A stretch of 64,000 nt of DNA from Nemertoderma westbladi (GCA_032718475.1 JAUCBJ010002303.1:1-64000), one strand, 5' to 3'; positions 3,957 to 34,726 are shown, numbered from the stretch's first letter. A program made the numbers and translations. The notes: a model not told the origin generated them from the sequence alone.

Positions 3957-4106
3957 TGCACGGTAGGGCCTATTGTTATAAGCAGAATAACTTAGAAAGT
4001 GGCAAAGACTGACAAGAACTGTTGAACTGAAAATATCCGAATTTATGCCACCTATGCGTATGACCTACCAAGACAATACCAGCCTACCGCTGTATGGCTA
4101 TTCCGA

Positions 4107-7125: not shown

Positions 7126-7584
7126 AGTCAGAAATTGCCAGATAATGAGCTACAGTAGGCCTACTGTATCTTTGTCACAACAGTAATATTATTTTATACA
7201 CTTCCAGTACATATTCAAAGAGGTCTAGATACTTAAACTTTAAACGAATGTTCCAAGAAACACTCAATGGAGGTCAACTGCTTAAATGACCAAGGTGCCC
7301 AGGTTCAGGAAAGCAGGCTGACTACGTTATTTCGATTTACTATTGATGGCTACGTTAAAACATACAAGGGCAGTCATCTAACCCCAAGCGAAATCCCCAT
7401 TTAATTAACCACAACTTCCATCTCCATACCCCCTAAGATAAAATCGCTGTAAACCTTCCCAAGGGCGCGCTCCATGTAGGCGGGAGGGGGCTATCACCTT
7501 GGCATAATAGATCAGCGCAGTAGGGTATGGGTGTAAACGTTAAGCAGACACTGGTGCAGACACGTGGTGCAGACACTGGTACTG

Positions 7585-12165: not shown

Positions 12166-12475
12166 ACAGTGGTGTAGACACTGGTGCAGACAGTGGTGCA
12201 GACATTGTGCATACAGTGGTGCATACAGTGGTGCAGACAGTGGTGCAGACAGTGGTGCAGACTGTGGTACAGACACTGGTGCAGACACTGGTGCAGACAC
12301 TGGTGCAGACACTGGTGCAGACAGTGGTGCAGACAGTGGCGAAGACACTGGTGCAGACACTGGTGCAGACAGTGGTGCAGTCAGTGGTGCATACAGTGGT
12401 ACAGACTCTGGTGCAGACAGTGGTGCAGACACTGGTGCAGACAGTGGTGCAGACACTGGTGCAGACACCTGGTGA
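9899..12475 (+). pseudogene. Gypsy pol C-terminal part (RT end, RNase H, integrase) reading through into a minisatellite
   Basis: 858-aa ORF with RNase H and integrase motifs. The tail (GADT/GADS)n is the translated 12-bp repeat. Confidence 0.8.
12166..12473. repeat. 12-bp minisatellite (CAC/GTGGTGCAGA)n; a short tract of the same unit lies at 7545-7582
   Basis: About 25 tandem units. The same unit flanks the left end of the Gypsy element. Confidence 0.9.
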
Positions 12476-12806
12476 AAATACTGAAATACCAGAGTACTCC
12501 AAAACAAAATATCAACAGGCACTATTACAGTATATTATATTTTATCATAGACTTTATTATCTACAAATATGCGATTAACTACTGAAAGGTTCTACATGAA
12601 GTAGGGAGGGAGTATGTAGTACAAGTCGGGGTTCGTGGGGGTGAATGTGCCCTGATTACAAATAATTATAAGTGGTGTGTACAAAAGTAATTAATCGGTA
12701 TTCTCGTTTTCATATAAACAATAATGTATACAAACTGTGAGCAGCATGTAGCAATGTCTCCAAGGAATGAAGCTTAAGCGACAGTGTTTGATTTTTTGTA
12801 CATGAC

Positions 12807-13346
12807 TGTTAGCTTATTCAATCCCGCCAACACCCCATAAAGTTATAAGCCGATAAGCAATATTGGGAGCCACGAGATTGGGCAATTAACCAACTCGTGC
12901 CATCCCAATAAGAGTGGGAAGGAAGCACACAATAGAGGGTCAGGGGCCAAACCCCTAACCCAGAGAGAACAGGTGGAGTGAACGGGAATACTCCACGGGG
13001 CGCCAACAAGGGTATTAACCAATCAGAGGGGGGAATGGCATCGATTGAGTAGCAGTAAGGCCACCGTGCAATATAACCAATAACCTATTAATCAGTGATT
13101 CAGTTATCTCAGTGCAACAGTGCTAGCGTAGGGTACAGTCAATTAGTTTAGTTAGGGGATCACGGGACTTTAGTTACCGTATCCCGCCTTATACACATTA
13201 TATCTATATCTATATTCTATGCCCTATTATTATTATACACCGAACTTCAGAACTCAGTTACTTTATTTCACCCTTATACATGGCGGGGACGCGTGGACTA
13301 AATTACCACATCGGATAAATCGGGATCCCTCCTGGATCCCGTCACA
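12807..13346 (+). repeat. LTR 1 (5' LTR of copy A)
   Basis: TGTTAGCTT...GTCACA; nearly identical to 22936-23476. Confidence 0.93.
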
Positions 13347-13426
13347 GTAACTAAATCCGAGCTGCCGCCCCAGTTAAACTCTGAGAACTATACTGCTAGC
13401 TAGTCGAACTCCACCGAGCAGACGAG

Positions 13427-16400
13427 ATGAGTGAATCGGGCGAGACACCGCCGCGGACCCCGGACGAAGATCAAACGATCCGCGAGGCCGCGACCAAGCG
13501 ATACGGGCCCACGACGCCGGAGCCATCGATAACGGGCGAACCGGAAGTTGAGGATGAGGGGGGCCTGGAACCCGAAGTCGAGCTAAGAGAGAAAAAGAGC
13601 GAGATGGAGGGAGAAGGAGATGAGTCGACACGGGACGGAGAACGGCGCGCCGATGTCGCCGGCCAGCTACCGGCCGAGGGCGACGAGCGGCCCACCGAAA
13701 CGGCGACGGTGGGGCCGACGGTACGACGCCGGACGCGAAGAGACGGAGGAGAGATTGGTACCGATGTCGCCGGCCAGCTACAGGCCGAGGGCGATGGACG
13801 GCCCACCGGAACGGCGACGGTGGAGCCGCCGGTACGACGTCGAACCCGGAGGGACGGAGGAGAGGTCGGTGACGAGGACGTCGGGGTTTCAGAGCGACTT
13901 CGACGGGCCTACAACGCGACCCGAAGGATGATGAAGGACGCCAAGAAGGAAGGGGCGAAGGTAGACGAGGTGAGACTGAGAAAGCGACTAGGTGAGTCGG
14001 ATAGACACATAAATTACCTAATACGTTTTGGGCAAAGAGAACTAGCCGAAACGAGAGCACACGAGATTGCTGGGGAACTGTTTGAACTATGGGAGTGTGG
14101 GAGTATGGAACCTAGTGTAGCGTCAGTGTACATAGGGCCATGCTTGGTCGATGCCCGGGGAGTAAAACCAGTAGGCTGGAGGGAACCCGAAGGGGGCGAA
14201 TCCGAGGTTAACCCCGAGGATTCGGCCTCGTCGGTCGGAGAAAGCTCCGGGAAGCGGGGGGAAATCAGTAGGTCGGGAAGGCGGGGGAAATCCGTCGTAA
14301 CCGATAAGTCTGTTACATCCTCCGCGAAAGGAAGAGCGGTGAGAGAGATAGGTGCCGAATATCGTCTCAGCATGGCAGCGAAAGATCATAGAGAAATGAA
14401 GGAACGGCTAGAGGAAGGGAGAGTGCGGTTAGAGAGGGAAACGGCATTGCTTAAAGAAACAGGAGAGAGGGCCGAAAGGGCTTTGAAAAGCCTAAGGGAG
14501 TATGATGAGATAGAGGAAAGGGAGTGTAGGGAGCGTGAGGCGAGAGAGGAAAGGGGACGCAAGGAGCGTGAGGCAAGGGAACGCAAGGAGCGTGAGGCGG
14601 AACGCAAGGAGCGTGAGGCGAGAAGGGAAAAGGAACGCAAGGAGCGTGAGGCGAGAGAGGAAGGGGAACGCAAGGAGCGTGAGGCGAGAGAGGAAGGGGA
14701 ACGCAAGGAGCGTGAGGCAAGGGAGGAAAGGGAACGCAAGGAGCGTGAGGCGGAACGCAAGGAGCGTGAGGCGAGAGAGGAAAAGGAACGCAAGGAGCGC
14801 GAAGTGAGACGAAGGGAGAGTATTAAGAGTGCTGCAGAGTCGGCCATTAGGGACACCCGGGAGCGTGAGAGGAGAGTGGCAGAGACTGAGGGAGAAAACA
14901 AGAAAATAGAGAGACTACAGAGTGAGTCTGCGGGAGATGAGATTAAACGGGCGCACGAGTTGCAACTCGTGCGAAAAGCGCCGTCTGAAAGCGGGGCCGG
15001 CTCGAGTATTTTTAGGGAGCCGGGGGCCGTAGAAACATTTATTAATACCCCACTGACAGGGACCGCACGACAGACTCAAGACTGGTGCGACCGTACGAGC
15101 GGGGGGGGGTAATAATAATATTGGTACAGTAGACGTTGTTAATATTGATAATACCGTATGGGACAACACTAATCAAACCTTTATTACAGGGAATGCTTTA
15201 CATAGTGGTAGTAATTTAAATTTAAATCAGAACGCCCCTAGTATTAATGTAGGAAATAACTCTAATATTAATGTAGCTACGCAAAATAATTCAGATAATC
15301 AAAGTAATGACCCAGATTCGAACCTACAAAATAATTTAAATAACGCAATTACGCAAAATAATTCGAATAATTTAAATAATGACCCATGCCCGAATTTACA
15401 AAATAATTCAGATAACGTAGTCGTGCTGAATAATATAAATAACTTTGTTCCAAACGAACAAAATAACTCCGTTTCCAATATGGGTGCTATTAATGTAAAC
15501 GCGTTGGGCCTGCATAACCAGGAAACAGAGGGCCTGGTAGGCCACGTAGTTGGTAGGGAGGGAGTAGAGGGCCTGGTAGGCCACGCAATAGCAGAGGGAG
15601 AGGCGGGGGTGAATGGACCCGACCGCAGTAGGGTTGATGTGTCGACTAGAGAGGTATATAATAGCGGGGAGAGAGGTAGCGAAGTTAGATGTAGCGAGTG
15701 GGGGGGGGGGGGGCTACGAGGACCCCACAACAGAGAGTTAGCGGCGAGAGGGGGGGGGCAGGGAGTGTCCCACACCTGTCAGCGGATAATGCGAGGGCCG
15801 AAATAGGTAAACCGCAACGACCGGCGACGGAAAGTAATAGGGGGATCGCGAGTATCCCCAGCGACGTGCGACCGAGCAGAGAGAGACAGGTTGACGTCGC
15901 GAGAGGGCGGACGGAGCGTCGAGCCCGATCAGAGGAGGGAAGAAGAACAGTGGGGTTTAACCGGGAGGTCGACGAGAGATCTCGCGAGCGGGAATATTCC
16001 ACTGATAGGAGAAGAAAGGAAGACAGTAGTAGAAGTATCGCTGCAAACGATAGAAGAGCGAGGACGGACAGCGAACCGTCGGTAGTCGAGATGAGAACGG
16101 AGAGTCAGTGGGGTCGGACTCCGGGAGATTGCCGTCGCCCCGGAGGGATGCGACCCGGTGAGATGCATTACACGCCGAGAGAGGGGTACACGATGTACCG
16201 GTACGAAGATGAGAACAGTAGAGGGGGGGGGTCAAAGATAAACTTTCCGACGGGATATACCTACCGAACGAGAATACGGTAGCCGCGGGGAGGATTATTC
16301 GAGAAGAATAAACTTCGATCCCGAACAACACATGCAGACTGTAGGGCATACTGTAGGTCTTACTGCACATACCGTAGGCCATACTGAGAGAGGCAATGTA

Positions 16401-19400
16401 GGCGATAGGATAGCGCGGACGACGGAATTAAACCCCGAAGTCGCGGAATACATACCGGCGGGTAGGCCAGAAGCAGATAGGCCTATACCGGTACCAGCAC
16501 AGCAGTATGACTACAGCATGCGAGGACATAACATATACCCAGGGGAGGGGGGAATTATTGCGGATAGGTGCATGGGCCCCAACATATTAACATCAACCCC
16601 ATTCCCAAACATACTGGTGGGGGGGGGGGCAGGGTGACATTCCCCCATCACAATATCAACAATATACCCCGATGGTAGCAAGAACAACGAGACCCTTGGA
16701 CGAAAACAGATCGTGTGACACAGATATATGGAGGGGGCCGCTACCCCCAATGACATACCCAAGCCAGAGAAGGTCAAGAAGTAGGACAGACGGAACGCAC
16801 CAAACAGGGGAAACTATACAGCACCCGTCGAATCCATTGGAAGCGCAGGCGATAGGGATGGCCACGTTGATCGATGCTTTGAAAACGAGGATCGAGTTAC
16901 CACCCGTGGAACCATTCAAGTTCGACGGGAGTAGGCCGGAAGAATATTTACAATTTCGGCGAATGTATAGTAACGAAATACTAACAAAAAACTTGACGCA
17001 GGCGGAGTGCCTAAAGTATCTACAAGTATACACGGGAGGCCCAGCATACGATATCGTGAGGCAATACCAAGGAATAGAGGGCGGCTTCACGACAGCATGG
17101 CGGGCACTGGATAGGGAATACGGGCACCCGGCCAAGATCATCAGGCAGACGCTGAGAGGCATAACATCGGGTGGCCTACAGGACAACCCCGTTAGCATTA
17201 AGACGTTTGCTAACAAAGTCGAAAAGGCGCTAATCGTACTGAAGACGCTAGACGCGCCGTACGAGCTCAATGCGTCCAACAACATCACCACGATAGCGCA
17301 GGCACTACCGAACTGGCTGCGCAACAAGTGGAGAAAAATCGCCTTCTCCACTCGAGATAAGAAGGGTGCGGAACCAGGTTTAGAAGAAATGTCAAACTTC
17401 TTAAATTACGAGGCTGAACTAATAACGGACCCAGTCTATAGTGAAGATAGCCTGGGAAAGGGACCAAAGACAGATCACTACAGACCGAAACCAGAGCACA
17501 ATACATCAAACGCATTGCCGAGGCTCAGGCAATCATTGCCATACGCAGCGACGCAGGGGACTGCAAGTCCACAGGCAAACGAAGATAAGACAACATCATG
17601 GAACGGACAGGGGAACAATAACAACATGAATAAACATAACCCCAGTACGTCCAGTAGGCCAAATCCAGTCAATAAGAATAGTAGGGACTTTGGTACGAAC
17701 ATAACTGCGATACGCAATGCATTGTATAAAGAGGGCTACGACCCAAAGAGCAAATGCCAGTTACACGCAAATGCGCTTCATAAAACCATGAACTGCAGGT
17801 ACTGGCAGGCGCTACCGAGGCAAGACCAGATAGATTACGCGTCGAGCAATAGAATCTGCTCGCGATGTGTAAAGAGTGGACACAAGGCCAGGGAATGCCA
17901 AGAGAAGCCGGTCAAGTTTGGCCAAAGGAGAGGCCAAACGATGGCAACGAGCACGGTAGGGGCGAAGAAGAGAGGCACGGTGTTACTCGGAGTAGTACCG
18001 GTGCGAGTGATCGGGGAAGGCAATCGATCAGTAACAACACTAATGGATAGTGGAGCTGCCTTCACATTAGTAGAGGAATGGGTAGCCGAAGAAATAGGAT
18101 TGAGAACAAGGCCAAGCAGGATGGCGGTAACAACCATCTCTAGCAAAGATGAGATCCTAGAGATGAGGACAGGACGGTGCGCAATTGCAGCAGTAGCACC
18201 AGGATGCGATTATGGGGCAACCATCGACCCCATCCAAGTAATAGAGTCAATTAACATCAATGCCAGGCGGCCAACCAACATCGAGGTCGAGCAATACAAA
18301 TTCCTGGACGACATTGACTTCTCGATCCCAGACGTGGACGTTAGGAAGGTATCCATCATAGTAGGAATGGACTGCCCGACGGCCCACGAAAGAATGCAAA
18401 CGGTCTTCGGCGAAGACAAGCAGAGTGACCCGGTGGCTATATTAACACCATTCGGGTGGACGCTGAGTGGTCCAATTAAGAGCAAGATACCATTCAGGAT
18501 GTCGGAGACATCAGGATGCATGTTCGCGGGAACAGTGCAGGAAATGGGTGATGAGGGAGCAGAGGAGCAGCTTAAAAGACTGCTCAGACAAGACTTTGAG
18601 GGACTGAAAGAGACACCGGGGTCGGGACCTCGGTAGAAGACAAACAGGCTCTACAAAGCGTGGAGGAATCGATGACGTGTGATGAGGGGCGGTATACAAT
18701 AGGAATGGTATGGAAACTACCGAAGATACCGCTACCCGATAATAGGGGGATGGTACTCACGAGACTTCGTAAGCTGAAACAAACACTAAAACGGAGCCCC
18801 GAGAAGAACGAGTACATTCACAAAACCATTAAGAAGTACGTCGAGAAAGGATGGGCCGTGGAGTTACCGGTCGACGAGCCGAACACGGACAGGACATACT
18901 ACCTGCCACTCCACGTAGCATTAGACCCAAAGAAAGGTAAACTGAGGATGGTAGTCGATGCATCGGCAAAGACCGACGGAAAATGCTTAAACGATTACCT
19001 GTTGGAAGGCCCAAATATTTACAATTCGGGCATAGAAGTACTACTTAGATTCAGGAATGGGAAACACGCCTTCACGTGTGACATAGAAGGCATGTTCAAC
19101 CAGGTCCGTGTAACGGAAGAAGACAGTGACAGTCAACGCTTCTTATGGTATAACGGCGAAGAAGAACCGCCGATAATACCAGCGTATAAGATGGTAGTAC
19201 AAAACATGGGGGCCAAGTCGTCCTCATTTACGTCGACTATGGCAGTGAGAGACACGGTAAAGGGGGAGGAAGATAGATACAGCAGTAGGGCCGTCGATAT
19301 GATCCGACGCGGCTTCTACGTAGACGACGGTATGGAGTCTGGAAATACGGTTGAGGAGATACTGGAAACGGCGCGAGGTTCGCGACATCCTGAAAGGATC

Positions 19401-21954
19401 CGGCTTCAACCTGACCAAATTCCAATCCAGTTCAGAAGAATTTATCAAGGCAATAGAGGACAAGAAACCGGAATCGACCATGGACAACCCTACAACAGCC
19501 AAAGGACAGGACATGGCGAATAAGAGAACACAATCGCAGCAAAAGGCATTGGGAATCGTGTGGGATAGAGGAACAGATGAACTGAAGTATCAGCTGAGCC
19601 AAGAGGGCGCAGACACCCATACGAAGAGGGGTTATGTATCGTATATAGCAAGGATATACGATCCCCTAGGCCTAGCATCCCCATTACTAGTCACGGGGAA
19701 ACAGATACTCAAGAGAGTATATAAATTGAAGGATGAGTGGGACGTAGAGGTACCAGAGGACATCAAGAAACAGTGGAGAAAATGGACAGGAGACTTGGAA
19801 AGAATGGGAACATACAACATGTCGCGAGTGTATTTTCCGGACGGGAACATGACGAGTCTGGACCTACATATGTTCTCCGATGCGTCGTTAGAGGCATACG
19901 GAGCGGCACTCTATTTAGTACAACGAGAGGGGGCTCACGAGCCCAGACTAGCCTTTAGCAAAGCTAAGTCAACGCCGCCAGATTCAGCATCTGTTCCCAA
20001 GTTAGAATTGACAGCTGCGAGACTAGGAGTTAGAGCCACAGCCTACCTAGTGGATACTATTCCCAACATAGTGGAGACACACTACTGGACGGACTCCATG
20101 GTAGTGCTTGGTTGGCTACACAACGAAAAGACGAGATACCCAATATTCGTCGCGAATAGAGTGGACGAAATAAGGGCGAGCACAGAACTGGAAAGGTGGC
20201 ACTACTGCCCAACAGACGAGAACCCAGCGGACTTGCTGTCGAGGGGCGTGGAACGCCACACTTTCTTAAAGAAGGAAGTATTGTGGCAACATGGGCCACA
20301 ATTTCTGAGCGATAAAGAGGCCTGGCCGCCAATGAGAAAGGTGGAGCCGGGCTCAGAAGTGGTGTCAGAGGGAGAAGAGGGAGACTCGGAGGGAGAAGAG
20401 ATATACTCCCAGATGGTGAGGGAGATTAGGGACGTGCAACCAAAGCAAGAACTACGCGATAACCCGACGGACAAACTCCTCAGCTATAGTTCTAGTTGGT
20501 ACAAGACCAAGAAACTGGTGGCGTACTGGAGAGCCTTCGGGAATTTCCTCGCGGGAGTTAATAAGGAGAAGAAAACCAGGGAAACCATAGATCTGGAAGG
20601 AGCGGCCAAGGCAATAATCTGCTATGAACAACGGAAGAACTACGGCGATGAGGTGGAACGTGTCGGCAACCAACAGCACCTCCGACGGGACAGCGAGTTG
20701 ATTACGCTGTCGCCACAACTCAACGAGGATGGGATTCTAGTAATGAATTCTAGGGTGGGATATAACAACAGTATAGTCGTGCCACCGAAACCCATCATCA
20801 TTCCCACAGGATCGCCTATAGTCCACCAGATCATATGGGACTCCCACAAATCGATATTGCATGGGGGCACCAACCGAACCCTCACAGAGATAAGGAGGAC
20901 CTATTGGGTCAAACAATTAAGAAAGAAGGTTAAAGCGGTAGTGGGGCAGTGCCAGACCTGCCGACGAGCGAAGAAGGAACGAGCCGTACAGGAGATGGCG
21001 CCACTACCGGCGAGTAGGGTAAGACAGCACGACCCGCCATTTACGCATTGCGGTGTGGACATGTTCGGGCCGATAAAGATCAAGGTGATGCGACACACGG
21101 AGAAACGCTACGGTATTATCTTCGTATGCAACAATACGCGGGCGGTAGGGATAGAACTCGCCCAAGATGCAACCGCATCAGCATTCATTAACGCCTTAGA
21201 AAGGTTTAGGGACCGCAAAGGTGGGACGATCGCAGTGATATACAGCGACAACGGCACCAACTTTGTGGGCGCAGAGAGTGAGATGGCAGAGGCCTTGGAA
21301 ATCTTAGAAGGAGAAGAAGTCAGGGCAGCCATGAGAAGACGACAAGTAAGGTGGGAGAGAAGGACGCCGTATGCACCACATACACTAGGATACGTCGAGA
21401 GACTGGTGGGCAGTTCAAAGCGTCTAATGACGAAGTTAATGAACACCCACATGGTCACTGAGGACGTCTTACGGACAGTACTTGCGAAGTGCGAGGGGAT
21501 CATTAATAGCAGACCGCTATACCCGGAGAATGATGACCCTGAGTCATTAGACGTGCTGACGCCTAGCCATTTTCTGATGGAAAGGCCAGCGACCATCGAT
21601 ATGCGGGGTGTAGACCCAGATGATATACATTCCCGCCAGAGTTGGAAAGTCGCTAAAGCAATAAGCGCAGAGTATTGGAGGAGGTGGGTAGAAGAATACC
21701 TACCCACGCTCCATAAGCGAAGCAAGTGGAGGAAGCCGAACAGGGAGTTAAGAGAGGGAGATCTCGTAATCGTCACGGATGATACTATCATCAACAACCA
21801 GTGGCGGTTGGCGAGAGTCGTAGGCACCTACTCCGACGAGGACGGAAGAGTCCGATCGGTAGAAGTGCGGATAGGTGGAAAGATAGGTGCGAAAGACAGA
21901 AAAACCTACAGGAGAGCAGTAGGTAAATGCTGTCTTCTAGAAGGGGCACCTTAA
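13427..21954 (+). pseudogene. BEL/Pao gag-pol polyprotein, broken by several frameshifts
   Basis: Long coiled-coil and Asn-rich N-terminus, Gag core FDGSRPEEY, CCHC knuckles, protease LMDSGA, RT FYVDD, RNase H FSDAS..AYGA, integrase GVDMFGP/SDNGTNF/VERLV. Frameshifts fall at G-runs (~15105, 15705, 16225, 16625) and at ~18615 and ~19370. Confidence 0.9.
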
Positions 21955-22935
21955 TATAGAGTTAGAGTGGAGTTTAGTCGTCCAAGTTTTGGACTGAGGG
22001 GGGTGGGATTGAGGGCGAGACGCCCTTCCCACACAAATAAAAATAAAAATAAAATAAAAATAATAGTTAGTTAGTTAGTAGGTACGTAGTACCTAGAGTT
22101 AGTTAGTTAGTTAGTAGGTTAGTAGTTAGAAGGAAGTGGCGGCAAAGGTCTGGAAGCAGAAAGCGGATGATGCCAGAGGAGCGGTGATAACCAAGAAACG
22201 GGCCAGGGAAGAGGACGTGAGGAGGAACAGATAAGTTCCCAGAGACGAGGGAACGAGGGAGTGGGACTGAGACTGGAAAGTGGTGCGCCTGGAAGGCGCC
22301 GCATGGAACGTACGAACTATTAAAATACAAACTTAATTAATGCAAATAACATATAAGTGCAATTTGTATGTACGTACATAGTGATTAGTAATCTAAAATA
22401 CATACGTTTGGAGTAAGTACTATAGTCATACAACCTTTCTCAATTAGCTACTGGGACTGGGGGATAAATGACTATGGCACTATGGACGAGACAACTGACA
22501 ATTTCACGCTTCTTGAGTGCGACGGCACGAGAGGGGGGGGAGGTTCGTCAGGAGAGATAAAATAGTCAAAGTGGAGTTGAGGATCGGAGTAAGAGTGCAA
22601 AGTGCGGAGAGAGTGCGAATGCAATTCTAGTGTGGGGGGGGAGAATAAGAGGCTGAGTGAGGGACGAGGAGGTCCGGGGGTATGAGAGAGTTAGGGTGAG
22701 AGTAGAGGGGAGATAGGGCGAAAGTGTTGGGGAAACAAAAGTCGCGATCGGCCCGACATGAGACGCCAGGCACACAGGGTAGCATTATCATACCCATAGG
22801 GGGCGGCCTGGAAAGCCGACCCCGAGAGAAAAGAATTCCACCCCACACCCGATACTAGATCGGGATCCAGCGGGATTGTAACGCACTTTTTTGGTTGATG
22901 CTATCTTCTTACCGGGAAGATAGCATGGGGGGGAG

Positions 22936-23476
22936 TGTTAGCTTATTCAATCCCGCCAACACCCCATAAAGTTATAAGCCGATAAGCAATATTGGGAGCC
23001 ACGAGATTGGGCAATTAACCAACTCGTGCCATCCCAATAAGAGTGGGAAGGAAGCACACAATAGAGGGTCAGGGGCCAAACCCCTAACCCAGAGAGAACA
23101 GGTGGAGTGAACGGGAATACTCCACGGGGCGCCAACAAGGGTATTAACCAATCAGAGGGGGGAATGGCATCGATTGAGTAGCAGTAAGGCCACCGTGCAA
23201 TATAACCAATAACCTATTAATCAGGGATTCAGTTATCTCAGTGCAGCAGTGCTAGCGTAGGGTACAGTCAATTAGTTTAGTTAGGGGATCACGGGACTTT
23301 AGGTACCGTATCCCGCCTTGTACACATTATACCTATATCTATATCCTATGCCCTGTTATTATTATACACCGAACTTCAGAACTCAGTTACCTTTATTTCA
23401 CCCTTATACACGGCGGGGACGCGTGGACTAAATTACCACATCGGATAAATCGGGATCCCTCCTGGATCCCGTCACA
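22936..23476 (+). repeat. LTR 2 (3' LTR of copy A)
   Basis: Preceded by the PPT; same termini as LTR 1. Confidence 0.93.
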
Positions 23477-26400
23477 GAGAGGGCAGACGAAGCGTCGAGC
23501 CCGATCAGAAGAGGGAAGAAGAACAGTGGAGTTTAACCGGGAGGTCGAAGAGAGATCTCACGAGCGGGAACACTGCACTGAAAAGAGAAGAAGAGAAGAT
23601 AGTAGGAGAAGTATCGCTGCGAACGATAGGAGAGCGAGGACGGATAGCGAGCCGTCGATAGTCGAGATGGGAACGGAGAGTCAGTGGGGTCGAACTTCGG
23701 GAGATTGCCGTCGTCCCAGAGAGGCGCGACCTGACGAGGCGCACTGCGCGCCGATAGAGGGGTACGCGATGTACCGGCACAAGGACGAGAGCAGTGGAGG
23801 GGGTCGAAGAGAAACTTCCCGGCGGGATACAGCTACCGATCGAGAATACGGTAGCCGCGGGGAGGATTACTCGAGAAGATTAAACTTCGATCCCGAGCGA
23901 CACATACAGACTGTGGAACATACTGTAGGCCTTACTGCACATACCATAGGCCATGCTGGCAGGAATAATTTAGGCGATAGGATAGCGCGGACAAAGGGAT
24001 TAAACCCGGAAGTCGCGGAGTACATACCGGCAGGTAGGCCAGAAGCTGACAGGCCTATTCCGGTACCAGTACAACAGTATGACTACAGCATGCAAGGACA
24101 TAACATATACCCAGGGGAGGGGGGAATTATTGCGGATAGGTGCATGGGCCCCAATATATTAACATCAACCCCAGTATCAAACATACCGGTGGGGGGGGGG
24201 GGGGGGGGGACAGGGTGACATTCCCCCATCACAATATCAACAATATACCCCGATAGGAGCAAGAACAACGAGACCCTTGGATGAAAATAGATCATGCGAC
24301 ACAGAAATATGGAGGGGGCCGCTACCCCCAATGATATACCCAAGCCAGAGGAAGGTAGAAAATAGGACGGACGGACCACACCCAACAGGAGAAACTATAC
24401 AACATCCATCGAACCCATTGGAAGCGCAGGCGATGGGGATGGCCACGTTGATCGATGCGTTAAAAACTAGGATCGAGTTACCAGCCGTGGAACCGTTTAA
24501 ATTCGATGGGAGTAGGCCAGAAGAATATCTGCAGTTTCGGCGCATGTATAGTAACGAAATACTAACAAAGAACTTGACGCAGGCGGAGTGCCTAAAATAT
24601 CTGCAAGTATATACAGGAGGCCCAGCATACGACATCGTGAGGCAATACCAGGGCATAGAGGGCGGCTTCACGACGGCATGGCGGGCACTGGACAGGGAAT
24701 ATGGGCACCCGGCCAAGATCATCTGGCAAACCCTGAGGGGCATAACATCGGGTGGCCTACAGGATAATCCCGTTAGCATTAAGACGTTCGCGAACAAAGT
24801 CGAGAAGGCGCTAATCGTGTTAAAGACGCTAGACGCGCCATACGAACTCAACGCGTCCAACAACATCACCACGATAGCGCAGGCACTACCGATGTGGCTG
24901 CGCAACAAGTGGAGGAAAATCGCTTTCTCCACTCGAGATAGGAAGGGTGCGGAACCGGGTTTAGAAGAAATGTCGAGCTTCTTAAACTACGAAGCCGAAT
25001 TAATAACCGACCCAGTCTATAGTGAGGACAGCCTGGGAAAGGGACCAAGAACCGATTACCATAGACTGAAACCAGAACACAACACGTCAAACGCATTGCC
25101 AAAGCTCAGGCAATCATTGCCATAAGCAACGACGCAGGGGACTGCAAGTCCACAGGTAGCCGAGGGTAAGACCACATCATGGAGCGGACAGGGGAAAAAT
25201 AACAACACAAATAAATATAACCCCAGTACGCCCAGTAGGCCGAACCCAAACAATAAGAATAGTAGGGACTTTGGTACAAATGCAACTGCGATACGCAATG
25301 CACTGTATAAGGACGGCTATAACCCAAAGAGCAAATGCCAGCTACATACAAATGCGCTTCATCAAACCATGAACTGCAGGTACTGGCAAGCCCTACCCAG
25401 GGAAGATCAGGTAGAATACACGGCGAGAAATGAGATCTGCTCGCGATGTGTGATGAGTGGACATAGAGCTAGGCAATGCAAGGAGACGCCGATCAAGTTC
25501 GGTCAAAGCAAAGGCCAAACGATGGCAACGAGCACAGTAGGGGTGAAGAAGAGAGGAACGGTGCTACTTGGGGTAGTACCAGTGCGAGTGATTGGAGAAG
25601 GCAATCGATCAGTGACCACACTGATGCTGGTAGATAGTGGAGCTGCCTTCACATTAATCGAAAATTGGGTGGCCGAAGAGATAGGATTGAGAACGAGGCC
25701 AAGTAGAATGGAGGTAACAACAATTTCTAGCAAAGATGAGGTCCTGGAGATGAGGACCGGACGGTGCGCGATTGCAGCGGTGGCACCGGGATGCGACTAT
25801 GGGGCGACCATCGACCCTATCCAAGTGATAGAGTCAATAAATATCAATGCCAGGCGGCCAACCAACATCGAGGTCGAACAATATAAATTCCTGGACGATA
25901 TCGACTTCTCAATCCCAGAGGTGGACGTTAGGAAGGTATCCATCATAGTAGGAATGGACTGCCCGACGGCCCACGAAAGAATGCAAACGGTCTTCGGCGA
26001 AGACAGGCAGTGTGACCTGATGGCGATATTGACACCATTCGGGTGGACGCTGAGTGGCCCAATTAAGAGTAAGATACCATTTAGGATGTCGGAGACATCA
26101 GGATGCATGTTCGCAGGAACTATGTAAGAAATGGGGGATGAGAGAGCGGAGGAACAGCTCAAGAGACTGCTCAGGCAAGATTTTGAGGGACTAAAGGAAA
26201 CCGGGGTCGGGACCTCGGTGGAAGACAAGCAGGCTCAGCAGAGCGTAAAGGAGTCTATGAGATGCGACGAGGGGCGGTATACCATAGGAATGGTATGGAA
26301 GCTACCAAAGCTACCACTGCCCGATAACAAGGGAATGGTACTCACGAGGCTTCATAAGTTGAAACAGACATTAAAACGGAGCCCCGAAAAGAATGAGTAC

Positions 26401-29400
26401 ATTCACAAAACAATCAGAAAGTACGTCGAGAAGGGATGGGCCGTGGAGTTACCGGTCGACGAACCGAACACGGACAGGACATATTACCTGCCACTCCACG
26501 TGGCTTTAGATCCGAAGAAAGGTAAACTGCGGATGGTAGTGGACGCATCGGCAAAGACCGACGGGAAATGCCTAAACGACTATCTGCTAGAAGGTCCCAA
26601 CATATACAACTCAGGGATAGAGGTCCTACTCAGATTCAGGAATGGGAAACACGCCTTCACCTGTGACATAGAAGGCATGTTCAACCAAGTCCGTGTGACG
26701 GAAGAGGATAGCGACAGTCAACACTTCCTATGGTACAACGGCGACGTGGAACCGTCGACAATACTGATGTACAAGATGATAGTACAGAATATGGGAGCCA
26801 AGTCGTCTTCATTCACGACGACTATGGCCGTAAGAGACACAGTAAAGGGAAAGGAAGATAAATACAGTACTAGAGCCGTCGATATGATTCGACGCGGCTT
26901 CTACGTAGATGACGGGATGGAGTCTGGAAATACGGTTAAGGAGCTACTGGACACAGGGCGCGAGGTTCGTGACATCCTTAAAGGATCCGGCTTCAACCTA
27001 ACCAAATTCCAATCCAGTTCGAAGGAATTTATCGAGGCGATAAAAGATGAGAGACCAGGATCGACCATGGATAATCCCACAACAGCCAAGGGGCAGGACA
27101 TGGCGAACAAGAGGATAGAATCTCAACAGAAGGCACTGGGAATCGTGTGGAACAGAGAGACGGATGAACTGAAGTACCAGTTGAGTCAGGAGGGCGCAGA
27201 TATCCACACAAAGAGGGGCTATGTGTCGTACATAGCAAGGATATACAATCCCCTAGGCCTAGCATCCCCACTATTAGTCACGGGGAAACAGATACTCAAG
27301 AGAGTATACAAACTAAAGGACGAGTGGGACGCAGAGATACCGGAAGAGATCAGAAAGCAGTGGTATAACTGGACAGAGAGCCTGGAGCAGATGGGAACAT
27401 ACAGCATGCCAAGAGTGTATTTCCCGGATGGGGACATGACAAATCTGGACCTACACATGTTCTCTGATGCATCGTTAGAGGCATACGGAGCGGCACTCTA
27501 TTTAGTACAACGAGAGGGGGCTCACAAGCCCTGACTGGCCTTCAGCAAAGCGAAGTCAACGCCACCAGATTCAGCATCAGTTCCCAAACTAGAATTGACA
27601 GCTGCGAGACTAGGAGTTAGGGCTACAGCCTACCTAATGGATGCTATTCCCAACATAGTGGAGACACACTACTGGACGGATTCCATGGTAGTGCTTGGTT
27701 GGCTACATAACAAAATGACGAGATACCCTATATTCGTCGCGAATAGAGTGGACGAAATAAGGGCGACCACAGAACTGGAAAGGTGGCACTACTGCCCAAC
27801 GGACGAGAACCCAGCGGACTTGTTATCGAGGGGCGTGGTATGCCACACTTTCTTGAAGAAGGAAGTATTGTGGCAACACGGGCCACAGTTTCTGAGCGAT
27901 AAGGAGGCCTGGCCGCCGATGAGAAAGGTGGACCCGGGCTCAGGAGAAGTAGTGTCAGAAGGAGAAGAGGGAGATTCAGAGGGAGAAGAGATATACTCCC
28001 AGATAGTGAGGGAGATTAGGGGCGTGCAACCAAAATCAGAAGAACCGTGCGATAACCTGGCGGATAAACTCCTTAGCTACAGTTCTAGCTGGTACAAGAC
28101 CAAGAAATTAGTGGCGTACTGGAGAGCCTTCGGGAATTTCCTCAGGGGAGTTGGCAAAGACGTGAAGATTAGAATGACAATAGATCTGGAAGGAGCGGCC
28201 AAAGCAGTCATCCGCTACGAGCAGAGGAAGAACTACGGCGACGAGGTGGAACGCGTCAGTAAACAACAGCATCTACGGTGGGACAACGAGCTCATCACGC
28301 TGTCACCACAACTTAATGACGACGGGATCCTAGTAATGAACTCTAGGGTGGGATACAACAACAGTATCGTCGTACCACCGAAGCCCATCATCATCCCCAC
28401 AGGATCGCCGATAGTCCACAAGATTATTTGGGACTCCCACAAGTCGATATTGCACGGGGGCACCAAACAGTTGAGGAAGAAAGTAAAGGCGGTAGTGGGG
28501 CAGTGCCAGAGCTGCCGACGAGCGAAGAAGGAGCGAGCCATACAGGAGATGGCACCACTATCGGCGAGTAGGGTAAGACAGCACGACCCGCCATTTACGC
28601 ATTGCGGTGTGGACATGTTCGGGCCGATAAAGATCAAGGTGATGCGGCACACGGAGAAACGCTATGGTATTATCATTCGTATGTAATAACACGCGGGCGG
28701 TAGGGATAGAACTCGCCCAAGATGCAACCGCATCGGCATTCATTAATGCCTTAGAGAGGTTTAGAGACCGCAAAGGTGGGACAATCGCAGTAATATACTC
28801 AGACAATGGGACCAACTTTGTGGGGGCGGAGAACGAGATGGCAGAGGCCTTGGATATCCTGGAAGGAGAGGAAGTCAGGGCAGCCATGAGGCGACGACAA
28901 GTAAAGTGGGAGAGGAGGACGCCGTATGCACCGCATACCCTAGGATGCGTCGAGAGACTAGTGGGTAGTTCGAAGCGTCTGATGACGAAGTTGATGAACA
29001 CCCATATGGTTACGGAGGACGTGCTAAGGACAGTACTTGCGAAGTGTGAGGGTATCATTAATAGCAGACCGCTATATCCAGAGAATGATGACCCTGAGTC
29101 ACTAGACGTGTTGATGCCCAGCCATTTCCTAACTGAAAGGCCAGCGACCATCAATATGCGGGGTGTAGACCCAGATGACATACACTCCCGCCAGAGTTGG
29201 AAAGTCACTAAGGCGATAAGCGCAGAGTATTGGAGGAGATGGGTTGAGGAATACCTACCCACGCTTCACAGAAGAAGTAAGTGGAGGAAGACGAACAGAG
29301 AGCTGAAAGAGGGTGATCTCGTGATCGTCACGGATGATACCATCATCAACAACCAGTGGCGGTTGGCGAGAGTTGTAGGCACTTACTCCGATGAGGACGG

Positions 29401-29509
29401 AAGAGTCCGATCGGTAGAAGTGCGGATAGGTGGCAAGATAGGTGCGAAAGACAGGAAAACCTACAGAAGGGCTGTAGGGAAGTGCTGTCTTCTAGAGGGA
29501 GCACCTTAG
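23477..29509 (+). pseudogene. BEL/Pao gag-pol of copy B (premature stops and frameshifts)
   Basis: Stops at ~25123, 26125 and 27532, a deletion near 28465 and a frameshift near 28675; same motifs as copy A. Confidence 0.9.
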
Positions 29510-29671
29510 TGTAGAGTAAGAGAGGAGTTTAGTCGTCCAAATTTTGGACTGAGGGGGGTGGGATTGAGGGCGAGACGCCCTTCCCACACATAAAAATAAA
29601 ATAAAAAATAAATATAAATAATAATAACTAGGTACGCAGTAAGTAGGCAGATAGAAGTTAGATAGTAAGAG

Positions 29672-30430
29672 TAGTAAGAGGGTACGTAGTACCGTTAGTT
29701 AGGAGTGTTAGAGGAGTAGTAAGAGGGTACGTCGTACCGTTAGTTAGGAGTGTTAGAGGAGTAGTAAGAGGGTACGTAGTACCGTTAGTTAGGAATGTTA
29801 GAGGAGTTAGTAAGAGGGTACGTAGTACCGTTAGTTAGGAGTGTTAGAGGAGTAGTAAGAGGGTACGTAGTACCGTTAGTTAGGAGTGTTAGAGGAGTAG
29901 TAAGAGGGTACGTAGTACCGTTAGTTAGGAATGTTAGAGGAGTTAGTAAGAGGGTACGTAGTACCGTTAGTTAGGAGTGTTAGAGGAGTAGTAAGAGGGT
30001 ACATAGTACCATTAGTTAGGAGTGTTAGAGGAGTTAGTAAGAGGGTACGTAGTACCGTTAGTTAGGAGTGTTAGAGGAGTTAGTAAGAGGGTACGTAGTA
30101 CCATTAGTTAGTTAGTTGAGTTAGAGGTTAGTAAGAGGGTACGTAGTACCGTTAGTTAGTTAGTGGAGTTAGAGGTTAGTAAGAGGGTATGTAGTACCGT
30201 TAGTTAGTTAGTTGAGTTAGAGGTTAGTAAGAGGGTACGTAGTACTGTTAGTTAGTTAGTGGAGTTAGAGGTTAGTAAGAGGGTACATAGTACCATTAGT
30301 CAGTGGAGTTAGAGTAGTAAGAGGGTACGTAGTACCTTTAGTTAGAGAGAGTAAGAGTTAGAGGGTACGTAGTACCGTTAGTTAGTTAGAGAGAGTTAGA
30401 AGTTAGTAAGAAAGTACGTAGTACTAGTTA
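29672..30430 (+). repeat. ~45-48-bp tandem array (~17 units) with the core palindrome GGTAC-GTA-GTACC
   Basis: The core recurs at 29681, 29726, 29771, 29817 and onward. Unit: AGTAAGAGGGTACGTAGTACCGTTAGTTAGGAGTGTTAGAGGAGT. Confidence 0.92.
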
Positions 30431-31256
30431 GTAAGAGATAGAGGTAGAAGGGTATATATAGTATAGATATTAGTCAGTAGTGAGTAGCGAGAGGGGGGCA
30501 TATGAGTACAGCTGGATAAATCGTGTGGCCATGCGACGCATACTGTTGTACTGCACAGGTCCCACAGAATAGGCCAGAATGTGGATTATAAAATAGAATA
30601 ATCCATAGATGATAGTAAGTAGTAGGACAGTAGAATTAAAATTAAATTAAAAATAAAATAAGAATAGGGCTGAAAATTAGCAAATTATGGTAACAGTGGA
30701 AAAGGAAATTCTGGAATATAATTAAAGTAATGGACAAAATTGCGATTTAGGGTACATTTAGTAGCTTCATAATTAAGTAGTGTAAAGAATAGGCGATAAC
30801 TCAGAAATTCAGAGAGAGATAGGCCATCGAACTGAAATAAACCATCTAAACCTATCACTCATCCTATAGCGCCTTGGTAAGGCACCACCCAAAGGGTGAG
30901 CGATCGGGCAGAGTTCGAGATGGCAAGCAAACTTGTGCGAAAGAGAAAGGCGGAGCTAGGAGGAAAGGAGATACTGGTGGATTTCACCAAGAGGCATCCG
31001 GAAGAGAGGACAAGGGGATACTACGAGCGGTTAGAAAAGGGTCACGCAGTGCGAGCGCTACAGGACCACTTCAGGGAGGTGCACGAATAGCGGCTGGTCG
31101 GGACCTACGGGACGCCGTCGCTGGACAACGCGATCTTCGAGCATTTCCACTACGTGGTGAAAGGAGACGAGGCGAAGTTCGGGATTCCGAAGTACGCAAG
31201 AGAGTCAGAGGAAAGATTGGAAGAGGTTCATAGAGTCCGTCAACAGGGGAGGATAC

Positions 31257-33467
31257 ATGATCCTAGATGACGAAGGGACTGTGGAAGACAAGGAGGGTTC
31301 AAGGAGAGGATCGGCGGGATTGGCCAGAACCATACTCCTACATTTGGCCGCGCCAAATGGGGATATTTTCCTATTTGACCTGGGAACGTATGGGAAGAAG
31401 GACGGGCCGAAGTTAAACTTGCTGCCGAGGGCGGTGCAAGTCCTAGTGAGAGAGAAGTCGACAACAAAAGTGGGATTGGCGATTCGCGATGACACGGAGA
31501 GAATCATCGGTCCGGACACCCCCAACCTCCTGGATATGCAGACGGTCTTCATGGCTATGACAGCACCAGACGGGTTGGGACTAGTCGAGAACACAGGCCA
31601 TTGCGGAGCGGTGGCGATGGGCCAGCTATTGGGGCTCGTATGTCACAAACCAATGGACTGGGGGAAGTTCAGAGAAGAGTACGGAGCAGAATTAGCAAAC
31701 TCGCTGAAGTGGGGAGCGAGGCCGGAAAAACAAGAGGTGTATCAATTCCGAAGAGGAGCGATAAAGGTATATCAGAAGCGATATATCCTGCAGGAGGACT
31801 GGATAATGATAGGTTTGCTTAACCTATTCATGACCGTGGTTATCGAGAGGGAACCAGCGGCATTCCTATTATCGGGATCACCCCTAAACTACAGAAGAGC
31901 CTTTAAGACGGCTTTCGTGGGTCTGGTAGACCACCCGGGGCTGAAGGGCGAGTCGGTGTACTACAACAGCCGACATCTGGTAGACGGGGAGATAGATACT
32001 CCGTATCAGAGATGGGAGCAGCTAGAGACGGATAGACGAGAGGCGAAGCGACTGGAAGAAGTTGCTAGACGGGAGAGGAGAGAAGCAGAGGAAAGGGAGG
32101 AGGAAGCCAGGGCGCAGAGCTACGGCTTCGAGGAACAGACGGGCTTAGACGAACTTCGTTGGACTTCATCAGGGAGTTCGGGGGAGTCTCTAGGGCGAGA
32201 ACTGGGATGGACGGTGGGATCACCGAAACAGTCAACGTCGGGATTGCAAGCGACGCCCATACCAGCGGGCACTGAGGGCGACCAGCCGCTAAGGAAGCTA
32301 GGGGAGCTAGAGGGATGGAGAGCTACGGGCGAGAGCCAAGGCGGGAAGGGACATAGTGGGTCCACCGGGATACCGGGGTTGGAGTCACTGCCAGAGGAGG
32401 ACGAAGACGACGACGAGTTCGGGAGGATCGGCCACTCGGACACGCACTGGGTTGGCGGGAGGGTGGTGACGGCCAGTGGGGCGAGGGCCTTCTGGGATAG
32501 ACCCGGCAAACGGGCCTGGGTGCACGAGGAGCCGGCGATGGATTTCGCGGGGAGCACTATCAGGTTGGGCGAGCAACCGGGGACGGCACCACGGGTAGTA
32601 TTCGGGGAGACGATGCACGAGAGGGGCGAGGAGATCGACGTAGATAGGGACACTAACGCCCGGAAGTTCGCTTACCAGCGACTCCACAGACCGCGGAGAT
32701 CGCTTGGGACGAAAGACGACGTGGGGCGGGAGACATTGGTACTCGGCTGCGACTACTGTGGGAGACAGACCCACCAGGAAAGGAGCTGTTTGTACCGGTT
32801 CCAGAAAGGAACTAGTTGTCTCTATTGCCGCGAGTCGAGCCACAGGATGGGGGCGTGTCCACGGTTGCATAACCGATGTTCGAAATGTAACTTCCGGGGA
32901 CATTACGGATGCCAGTGCGACTGGATGGACGACAAAGAAAAGTTTAGGATCTTCGAGGAGGTGGCCGACGTCGGAGCGATGACTCGGCAACGCATGAAGG
33001 CCCAGGAGTTCCGGTGGGGCTTCTTTAACATCAATCAGGAGGCTCACATGGAGATTATCAAACGGAGGCTTCCGTTTACCTATCAGGAAGTGGCGACGGC
33101 GGTATCATATGCCGGAGTGATAAATACGCAGAGGTATTTGTATAGGTGGACGCCACAGAGTAGAGGAGAGTTTAGGGATTTCTTGGCGGAGCATGTGCCG
33201 CAGGCAATGAAGATGATCTTATGGGACGCCACCAGGGGGAGACAACAGGGCCACTCGGAGGGGCCACCCGCTAAGCGATACCGGGAGCTAATAACACCGG
33301 CACCCAAGGAGTCAACGACCGGGATCAGTAAGGAGGTGGTGGCGAGAGTCCGAAGCCAGAAAGCAGACAAGACCAGAGGAGCGGCAGTGACCAGGAAACG
33401 ACCCAGGGAGGAGGACGACAAAGGGAAAGACTTGAGGTGGTTCCCAAAGGCTGGTGGAACGAACTAA
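31257..33467 (+). CDS. Retrotransposon accessory protein: DEDDy-like 3'-5' exonuclease domain plus three CCHC zinc knuckles (true start probably ATG 30920, with one stop and one frameshift)
   Basis: ExoI-like ILDDEG, LLHLAAPNGDIFLFDL, ExoII-like LPRAVQVLVREKSTTKVGLAIRDD, LLDMQ and ExoIII-like QKRYILQED. Knuckles: CDYCGRQTHQERSC, CLYCRESSHRMGAC, CSKCNFRGHYGCQC. Basic C-terminal RKRPR. Confidence 0.72.
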   Translation: MILDDEGTVEDKEGSRRGSAGLARTILLHLAAPNGDIFLFDLGTYGKKDGPKLNLLPRAVQVLVREKSTTKVGLAIRDDTERIIGPDTPNLLDMQTVFMAMTAPDGLGLVENTGHCGAVAMGQLLGLVCHKPMDWGKFREEYGAELANSLKWGARPEKQEVYQFRRGAIKVYQKRYILQEDWIMIGLLNLFMTVVIEREPAAFLLSGSPLNYRRAFKTAFVGLVDHPGLKGESVYYNSRHLVDGEIDTPYQRWEQLETDRREAKRLEEVARRERREAEEREEEARAQSYGFEEQTGLDELRWTSSGSSGESLGRELGWTVGSPKQSTSGLQATPIPAGTEGDQPLRKLGELEGWRATGESQGGKGHSGSTGIPGLESLPEEDEDDDEFGRIGHSDTHWVGGRVVTASGARAFWDRPGKRAWVHEEPAMDFAGSTIRLGEQPGTAPRVVFGETMHERGEEIDVDRDTNARKFAYQRLHRPRRSLGTKDDVGRETLVLGCDYCGRQTHQERSCLYRFQKGTSCLYCRESSHRMGACPRLHNRCSKCNFRGHYGCQCDWMDDKEKFRIFEEVADVGAMTRQRMKAQEFRWGFFNINQEAHMEIIKRRLPFTYQEVATAVSYAGVINTQRYLYRWTPQSRGEFRDFLAEHVPQAMKMILWDATRGRQQGHSEGPPAKRYRELITPAPKESTTGISKEVVARVRSQKADKTRGAAVTRKRPREEDDKGKDLRWFPKAGGTN

Positions 33468-34159
33468 GACTTCGGTGTAACATGCCTGGAAGGCACCACG
33501 CGAGACGTGCGAACTCTTAAATACAAATTCAAATAATGTAAATAATCGAATAAGTACAATTTGTATGTACGTACGTAGCAATCAGTAATCTAGTAATGAA
33601 ATATATATATTCGAAGTAAGTACTATAGTCATATAACCTTTCTCAATTAGCTACTGGGACTGGGGACCAATGGACTATAATACTACTACGGACGAGACAT
33701 TGGACGACATCACGCTTCTTGAGTGCGATGGCACAAAAGGGAGGGGTGAAACTCGTCGGGAGTGAGTGGTCAGGATAGAGGTTGAGTTGTAGTGCGGAGA
33801 GAGTGCGGAGTATAGAGAGAGTGTGAGCGCAATTCAAGTGTGGGGGGGAGAAGTAAGAGGCAGATTGAGGGACGAGGAGGTTCGAGAGTGTGTAAGAGTT
33901 GGGGTGAGAGTAGAGTAGAGTTGGAGTGGCGAAAATGTTGGGGAAACAAAAGTCGTGTGGGAGGAGCGCACGATCGGCCCGACACGGGATGCCAGACAAA
34001 TGGGGTAGCATTATCATACCCATAGGGAGCGGTCTGGAAAGCCGGCTCTGAGAGAAAATAGTTCCACCCCACACCCGATACTAGATCGGGATCCAGCGGA
34101 ATTGTAGCGCACTAGAGGTGGATGCTATCTTCTCACCAGGAAGATAGCATGGGGGGGAG

Positions 34160-34726
34160 TGTTAGCTTATCCAATTCCGCTAACCACCCCATAAAGTGAG
34201 CCATTAAGCAATATTGGGGAACACGAGGGTGAGCAGTCAACCTCGTGTCACCCCAACAAAGTGGGAAGGAGAAAGCACACACACACACACACACAATAAG
34301 GGTCAGGGGTTACACCCCTGAGAGAGAGAGAGAGAGAGTAACAGGGGCGAAGGGAAACCCTCCAGGGGAGGAAAAGGGCGACAACAGGGTTATTAGACAA
34401 TGGGGGGAAGGCATCGGTTGAGTAATGTAACACAGCCAACCGTGCAATATATATTATCAGTACAGTAATCATTTCATTCACTTATAGTAAGTCAGTTTAG
34501 CTAGGGTAGTACCGGAACTTCAATTACCGTCTTCGTATACCATCCGTGTATCCAATATTGTATCTTATACTTTGTGTTATCATCTGTATACCTTATATCA
34601 TATCTTATACTATTATACCCGGAGAACTATATACAGCGATCAATAACTCTCTTTACCTTTCACACACGGCGGGGACGCGTAGATTGAAAACCGGATAAAC
34701 CGGGATCCTCCGTAGATCCCGTCACA
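34160..34726 (+). repeat. LTR 3 (3' LTR of copy B, diverged)
   Basis: PPT followed by TGTTAGCTTAT...GATCCCGTCACA; same termini as LTR 1 and LTR 2 with a diverged interior. Confidence 0.88.

Follow-up and report, generated by a model that had tools for sequence, protein, structure and literature searches.

The 64,000-nucleotide window analysed here, from Nemertoderma westbladi (GCA_032718475.1 JAUCBJ010002303.1:1-64000), carries two related BEL/Pao retrotransposon copies, A and then B, head to tail, and copy B holds a third open reading frame (ORF3) behind pol. Our data indicate that ORF3 is a selected, vertically inherited two-domain accessory gene in which the catalytic acids are optional. 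It appears to be a gene that this BEL/Pao lineage captured anciently. Sequence profiles and a structural model make its first domain almost certainly DEDDy-like, of the WRN/EXD type, with the predicted fold of an RNA-trimming 3'-5' exonuclease. Its second domain is a triple zinc knuckle module.

The main frame of ORF3 runs from 31161 to 33467 on the plus strand, 768 codons from stop to stop, between the pol stop and the polypurine tract and 3' long terminal repeat (LTR) of B. A long sense ORF at this place had been recognised in the initial annotation, made from the window's sequence, and the motifs that it described are all present: ExoI-like ILDDEG (31260-31277), ExoII-like KVGLAIRDD (31467-31493), ExoIII-like RYILQED (31779-31799), three CX2CX4HX4C knuckles (32748-32789, 32817-32858 and 32877-32918) and a basic patch near 33390. 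Over 19 residues, hydropathy peaks at 1.46 for the main frame and at -0.2 for the piece upstream of it. This low maximum indicates that ORF3 has no signal or membrane segment, as had been proposed. An env gene was rejected on the same hydropathy value and on the likeness of the folded domains to nucleases and zinc knuckles. A frame artefact was also rejected, as was an origin of the knuckles by duplication of the Gag knuckles, since only about 6 bits connect the two.

Upstream, as had been described, a frame opens at ATG 30920 that is likely the N-terminal part of ORF3, interrupted by a stop at 31088 and a frame break near 31205-31207. The N-terminal piece (30920-31207) gave no score against the family profile. 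In 15 of 28 listed relatives, 77-101 residues separate the first methionine from the ExoI motif that follows it; in the window copy the distance is about 115 residues. Sister copies were available as short contigs from four DNA runs and three samples under the same organism label, and these cover the ORF along its length. At the stop at 31088, 91-95% of the contig depth in X1-X3 reads otherwise, as does the sole covering contig of X5, and contigs vary in length at 31205-31207. Since most sister copies lack them, the stop and the frame break are lesions of the window copy. The exonuclease domain lies wholly inside the open frame, downstream of both breaks. Contigs of X1, X2 and X3 also contain a deletion joint from 30937 to 32073, which removes the whole exonuclease domain and is possibly the mark of an amplified ORF3-less derivative.

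Single sequences said little about the exonuclease domain. Pfam and PDB phmmer searches were blank for it, AlphaFold without an alignment gave a predicted local distance difference test (pLDDT) score of 33, and word-index protein searches returned no matches, which carry no weight since one of these searches missed even its own members. A phmmer search against 1.84 billion representatives gave 82 matches, with the best stretch of all at the knuckles; these proteins are known by sequence only, without genomic context. Profiles were more informative. Built without the query from the N-terminal 340 residues of 12 homologues, a profile scored the window domain at 63 bits and, after iteration, at 74.7 bits; the window protein reached 75.2 bits, compared with a best of 1.7 among 500 shuffles and the reversed sequence. 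Pfam DNA_pol_A_exo1 was recognised in one of 38 homologues, at an E value of 6e-5, just under the cut-off. A 30-sequence profile that included the query matched the PDB sequences of EXD2 (E 1.5e-12), Egalitarian (3.9e-4) and WRN (1.4e-3). Its match to the trypanosome RNase D TbRND (6.7e-7) was mostly through the knuckles, the exonuclease part matching weakly. With a domain-only profile of 22 sequences, EXD2 was matched at E 4.4e-8.

In the AlphaFold model built on 70 sequences, block pLDDT is about 51 for the first 20 residues, 62-91 for residues 21-230 and 88-96 for the knuckle module. VIA-align of this model ranked DnaQ-fold nucleases first. The top match was 5zo5 (Z 11.3, root mean square deviation (rmsd) 3.4 over 160 residues); Nibbler (10.9), WRN (10.8), RNase D (10.2), RRP6 (9.9) and TbRND (9.6) were also matched, and diDNase was among the top matches (11.3-9.9). 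In total 31 chains had a Z of at least 8, and the rmsd of the top matches was 2.8-3.4. The knuckle module had no fold match of its own in the VIA-align list, since the exonuclease filled it, and Foldseek against viral structures gave nothing meaningful. By Atlas features the value to a 3'-5' exonuclease cluster, with PF01612 on 34% of its members, was 0.93. The WRN/EXD identity suggested in the initial annotation is thus upheld by the profile (EXD2 at E 1.5e-12) and by the predicted DnaQ-like fold (VIA-align Z 10-11), and the ExoI DxE and the ExoII D stand in aligned columns. The family has a conserved insertion of its own between ExoII and ExoIII, about 30-40 residues long, aromatic and basic, with the pattern KP...WP..R...Y.W.

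ORF3 belongs to a family of third genes in BEL/Pao elements. A DNA pattern for the knuckle motif, which has one match in the window and none in 100 shuffles, found at least 120 loci in metagenomes, 80 of them with flanks; because this search selected on knuckles, exonuclease-only ORF3s would be missed. BEL-type pol lies upstream on the same strand in 39 of the 80 flanked loci listed, at about 24-34% identity to the window pol, and in 30 of the 34 listed loci with at least 4 kb upstream. Peptidase_A17 and DUF5641 were present in all four relatives checked, and the Gypsy pol of the window had no match among the 120 loci listed. In the relatives, ORF3 has a frame of its own after pol has ended, with its first methionine 40-775 nt past the pol stop in 27 of 28 listed. 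The exonuclease domain was detected by profile in 50 of the 80 listed flanked loci, including 34 of the 39 with BEL pol. Of the other five, L079 has a diverged exonuclease (hhalign 99.3%) and L010 looks like L079 by eye. No exonuclease was detected in L043, L047 and L059; these three BEL elements keep the knuckles, with a long low-complexity or helical region where the exonuclease is expected. In the diverged type (L010:4599-7058 and L079:4428-6767, minus strand) only a short distance separates the exonuclease from the knuckles, with H..QD at ExoIII. The A..G..T and WGF-like motifs behind the knuckles occur in 83 and 85 of 99 modules, respectively, and homologue P0001 has two tandem copies of the knuckle module. 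The knuckle pattern had no match in viral contigs, and a search for related loci with P0048 found none.

The history of ORF3 follows that of its element. Distances in the integrase and exonuclease trees of 28 loci and the window (FastTree) are correlated with a rho of 0.81, and none of 2000 permutations was as high; both trees place the window on a long branch that lacks support. Element A, whose gag-pol is 87% alike to that of B, lacks 3.6 kb (the counterpart of B 29683-33329) that holds nearly all of ORF3. It retains the last ~140 nt of ORF3 and the 3' untranslated region (UTR), with about 74% identity to B, which indicates that ORF3 was present in the common ancestor of A and B. The ratio of non-synonymous to synonymous divergence (dN/dS, Nei-Gojobori) of the exonuclease was 0.086-0.487 in the 14 of 16 pairs with a value, where dS was 0.7-1.4 and partly saturated and the pairs were not independent. 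The knuckle module gave 0.03-0.41, and the integrase 0.03-0.10 where dS was finite, so by this ratio ORF3 evolves faster than the integrase. Of 21 polymorphic sites listed for the sister copies, 17 are synonymous, compared with a synonymous-site share of 0.23, and 8 of 10 listed private differences of the window copy are non-synonymous; these counts rest on the 31 of 40 rows listed among 743.

These results bear on the possibility that ORF3 is carried along neutrally as a passenger or was inserted as an element of its own. In its favour, the window copy is broken, element A is without ORF3, and PMC5408684 describes no clear departure from neutrality for the ORF3s of bdelloid elements. Against this stand the co-phylogeny with integrase, the dN/dS of 0.09-0.49, the excess of synonymous sister-copy polymorphisms (17 of 21, where a share of 0.23 is expected) and the ORF3 3' remnant in element A. 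A passenger is therefore largely refuted and highly improbable. The initial annotation had allowed for an ORF confined to this copy, evolving neutrally or inserted separately. Instead, ORF3 recurs with BEL pol in 39 of the 80 listed loci and is under selection, and its co-phylogeny and the remnant in A speak against separate insertion.

Catalytic acids were counted in 66 domains, namely that of the window and the 65 near-complete domains among 89 profile matches (24 partial or duplicate rows were dropped). Four acids are present in 36 (D-E-D-D in 27, D-E-D-E, the window type, in 6 and another four-acid set in 3), two or three in 8, and one or none in 22. The losses lie mostly in one clade that is supported in both trees. 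This dead clade joins the family by a profile-profile match of 99.8%, and its profile alone had no match against the PDB. Its exonuclease dN/dS is 0.087-0.487 (6 pairs), and catalysis is therefore not needed for retention, because the dead clade is under purifying selection.

ORF3 might serve replication as an enzyme, either proofreading cDNA or trimming the 3' ends of primer, cDNA or RNA in the particle. This would suit the 27 D-E-D-D and six D-E-D-E domains and the closest sequence matches, EXD2 and WRN. Both proteins act on DNA as well as RNA. We consider such a role unlikely, since a whole clade lost its acids jointly yet has long ORFs and a dN/dS well below 1, and since ORF3 is a separate frame, unfused to reverse transcriptase (RT). 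cDNA proofreading in particular, one of the functions raised in the initial annotation, is unlikely because this large clade lost all catalytic residues and still keeps the domain under selection. Of that annotation as a whole, the element-encoded DEDDy-like domain with three knuckles in the env position stands, and the proofreading role is unlikely.

The reading that we favour, tentatively, is that ORF3 would work in trans, as an RNA binder that shields the element from host small-RNA silencing. Counter-silencing is favoured because the nearest folds include factors of the PIWI-interacting RNA (piRNA) pathway, ORF3 outpaces the integrase, and dead versions persist; action in trans fits the existence of copies without the domain (element A and the 30937-32073 joint). 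ORF3 would be made from a subgenomic, probably spliced, mRNA. Its knuckles would grip single-stranded RNA and pass the 3' end to the DEDDy domain, as in TbRND. Members with four acids may trim or destroy small RNAs or their precursors, whereas dead members may keep RNA bound or stand in as decoys for those piRNA factors of the host that share the fold (EXD1, Nibbler, Egalitarian-like). The arenavirus nucleoprotein offers a parallel, as a viral DEDD nuclease directed against host RNA sensing. A narrower version, in which a captured EXD-type nuclease with a knuckle clamp destroys or sequesters piRNAs or small interfering RNAs and one large clade serves as a dead decoy, is conceivable, and we hold it more loosely. 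If true, an animal retrotransposon would encode a suppressor of silencing made from the fold that the host itself uses for piRNA trimming. The natural active, dead and exonuclease-less versions of ORF3 make it directly testable whether animal retrotransposons counter piRNA silencing with their own proteins.

Several results weigh against a counter-silencing function. The dN/dS is everywhere below 1 and no positive selection was detected. ExoIII of the window copy is YxxxE rather than YxxxD, as the initial annotation had noticed. The same YxxxE occurs in five homologues that keep the other three acids, and the ExoIII acid is D in 34 and E in 19 of the 66 family domains. Foldseek against the PDB had no match at E<=0.001 (best 0.037, EXD2), though the rows listed were DnaQ-type; because of this and of the poorly modelled ExoI strand (pLDDT ~51), the active-site geometry is uncertain. 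The exonuclease domain is not essential throughout the lineage, because L043, L047 and L059 have no detectable domain.

A role in the element's own ribonucleoprotein fits the same data equally well. ORF3 could be an adaptor for its own RNA, Egalitarian- or Rev-like, that binds a structured signal and supports export, germ-line localisation, 3'-end protection or packaging, with nuclease activity optional. Purifying selection on the dead clade agrees with this, as do the basic patches in ORF3, the 3' UTR that is ~74% conserved between A and B despite the deletion of ORF3 in A, and the profile and fold likeness to Egalitarian, which carries I-factor RNA (PMC13186709). However, the best sequence match is EXD2 and not Egalitarian, no LOTUS-like or other Egl domain was seen in ORF3, and Gag has its own knuckles, which are not close to the ORF3 module (~6 bits). 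We regard the adaptor as a possibility nearly as likely as anti-silencing, which remains our preferred reading.

Copy B has the marks of BEL/Pao elements (Belpaoviridae). These are Peptidase_A17 (E 1.9e-28), DUF1759 (1.4e-10) and DUF5641 (5.1e-25), together with aspartyl protease, RT and integrase domains, the order protease, RT, RNase H, integrase, LTRs of the form TG...CA and a polypurine tract. Stops at 25123, 26125 and 27532 disrupt its gag-pol, and the frame changes near 28650-28690. The 5' LTR of B is missing and the 3' LTR of A occupies its place; no target-site duplication was found for A or B. The AG at the end of the pyrimidine tract in the spacer before ORF3 is a possible splice acceptor. 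A and B agree well over a block of the 3' UTR (33980-34150) that has a hairpin immediately before the polypurine tract and is a candidate ORF3 binding site; Rfam had no matches over 12000-35500. In Belpaoviridae a primer-binding site (PBS) for tRNA-Arg or tRNA-Gly directly follows the 5' LTR. In the window, a PBS-like motif that starts with TGG falls within the repeated LTR unit, some 65 nt ahead of the CA end (13282-13296, 23412-23426 and 34668-34682). The LTR could have grown past an old PBS, or the elements could self-prime in the manner of Tf1. Tf1 elements are self-priming. Bases right after the 5' LTR of A (13347-13358) can pair with LTR positions 13170-13181, with an overall z of -0.88, which is not significant. 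The other features of the window are given in Table 1. The Transferase family, PF02458, is mostly plant and fungal, and its ORF here may reflect horizontal transfer if the host is an animal.

Table 1. Positions of features in the window, counted from its first letter.
Feature	Position	Strand	Remarks
Transferase-family ORF, long single frame	776-2275	-	PF02458, E 3.6e-19
Hikeshi-like gene, one uninterrupted frame	3369-4064	-	
Non-LTR RT fragment	5618-7149	-	Judged from translations
Gypsy-type element, frameshifted	8000-12500	+	Judged from translations
Element A, related BEL/Pao copy	12807-23476	+	LTRs 12807-13346 and 22936-23476, 98% alike
Element B gag-pol	23477-29509	+	5'-truncated gag, DUF1759, protease, RT, Pao peptidase/RNase H region, integrase, DUF5641
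Spacer from pol stop to ORF3, non-coding	29510-30919	+	45-nt tandem repeats, AT-rich stretch, pyrimidine tract ending in AG 30868-30869
ORF3 N-terminal part (likely), start ATG 30920	30920-31207	+	Broken: stop 31088-31090, frame break near 31205-31207
DnaQ/DEDDy-like 3'-5' exonuclease domain (predicted)	31209-31830	+	ExoI D 31266, E 31272; ExoII D 31491; ExoIII Y 31782, E 31794
Helical/coiled stretch, then long predicted-disordered linker	31831-32730	+	Helix in model residues 250-293; pLDDT <50 over 297-491
Triple CX2CX4HX4C zinc knuckle and conserved helical extension (A..G..T, WGF-like motifs)	32748-33100	+	
ORF3 C-terminal tail, basic patch, stop	33101-33467	+	Last ~140 nt are the remnant in element A
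Polypurine tract	34151-34159	+	
3' LTR of B, TG...CA	34160-34726	+	~70% like the LTRs of A; flanks of other copies diverge behind 34726

ORF3 shares its fold and the ExoI-III layout with the group of EXD2, WRN-exo, Nibbler (Mut-7), EXD1 and Egalitarian. Unlike these, it has an insertion before ExoIII, carries knuckles and is element-encoded, and its structural identity to the top matches is 9-17%. Loss of catalysis has precedents in this group: the exonuclease-like domain of Egalitarian binds RNA with dispensable catalytic residues (PMC13186709), and EXD1 is described in PMC5408684 as a non-catalytic RNA binder. The HRDC domain, a trait of RNase D and Rrp6, had no Pfam or PDB-profile match, though Pfam saw the exonuclease in only 1 of 38 homologues.

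The kinetoplastid enzyme TbRND (PDB 7c42/7c45) also combines a DEDDy domain with C-terminal CCHC zinc fingers. With its zinc fingers TbRND binds and cleaves RNA much better, and overexpressing it reduces guide RNAs (PMC7797062). Homologue P0029 also points to TbRND by its Atlas features (0.85), as a lead only. The kinetoplastid architecture is matched as a layout only, with three knuckles instead of four; TbRND is a cellular enzyme of about 350 residues with four fingers, whereas ORF3 belongs to a mobile element and has about 300 residues between domain and knuckles. This shared layout may be convergent because the exonuclease part matches weakly (11.6 bits).

With Belpaoviridae that have env-like third genes, copy B shares the gag-pol order, LTRs, polypurine tract and a third gene after pol (PMC8742986; Atlas virus, PMC9094657), but ORF3 is not an envelope protein. 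The profile of Belpaoviridae by the virus taxonomy committee ICTV lists gag, pol and env only (PMC8742986), and the word exonuclease is absent from the BEL/Pao survey PMC3118150. No report of a DEDDy ORF3 in BEL/Pao was found in the literature covered, which excludes older Cer-element papers, Repbase and GyDB. A Cer (BEL) element of C. elegans reportedly has an exonuclease domain; if so, the present family is less new.

The closest precedent is in bdelloid rotifers, and it had been overlooked in the initial annotation. DEDDy ORF3s occur there in the LTR elements Juno and Vesta and in Athena/Terminons (Rodriguez et al. 2017, PMC5408684), and reviews repeat these cases (PMC5718144, PMC6431247, PMC6338049). 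A DEDDy ORF3 as such is thus already in print, whereas we found no published account of this BEL/Pao lineage, of the EXD2-like domain joined to a triple knuckle or of the dead clade under selection. Taken with the bdelloid cases, our data suggest that LTR elements repeatedly recruit DEDDy domains. The third-gene type described here, nearly invisible to Pfam (1 of 38 homologues recognised), marks a deep BEL/Pao lineage and travels with pol under selection. As here, the Juno and Vesta LTR elements encode a DEDDy exonuclease at the ORF3/env position, without a membrane domain. In contrast, the host element here is BEL/Pao, and the whole words BEL and Pao are absent from PMC5408684. ORF3 is further set apart by a triple CCHC module after a long linker and by a best match to EXD2 instead of RNase D, as well as by its split into catalytic and dead clades, a phylogeny that agrees with that of pol, and purifying selection.

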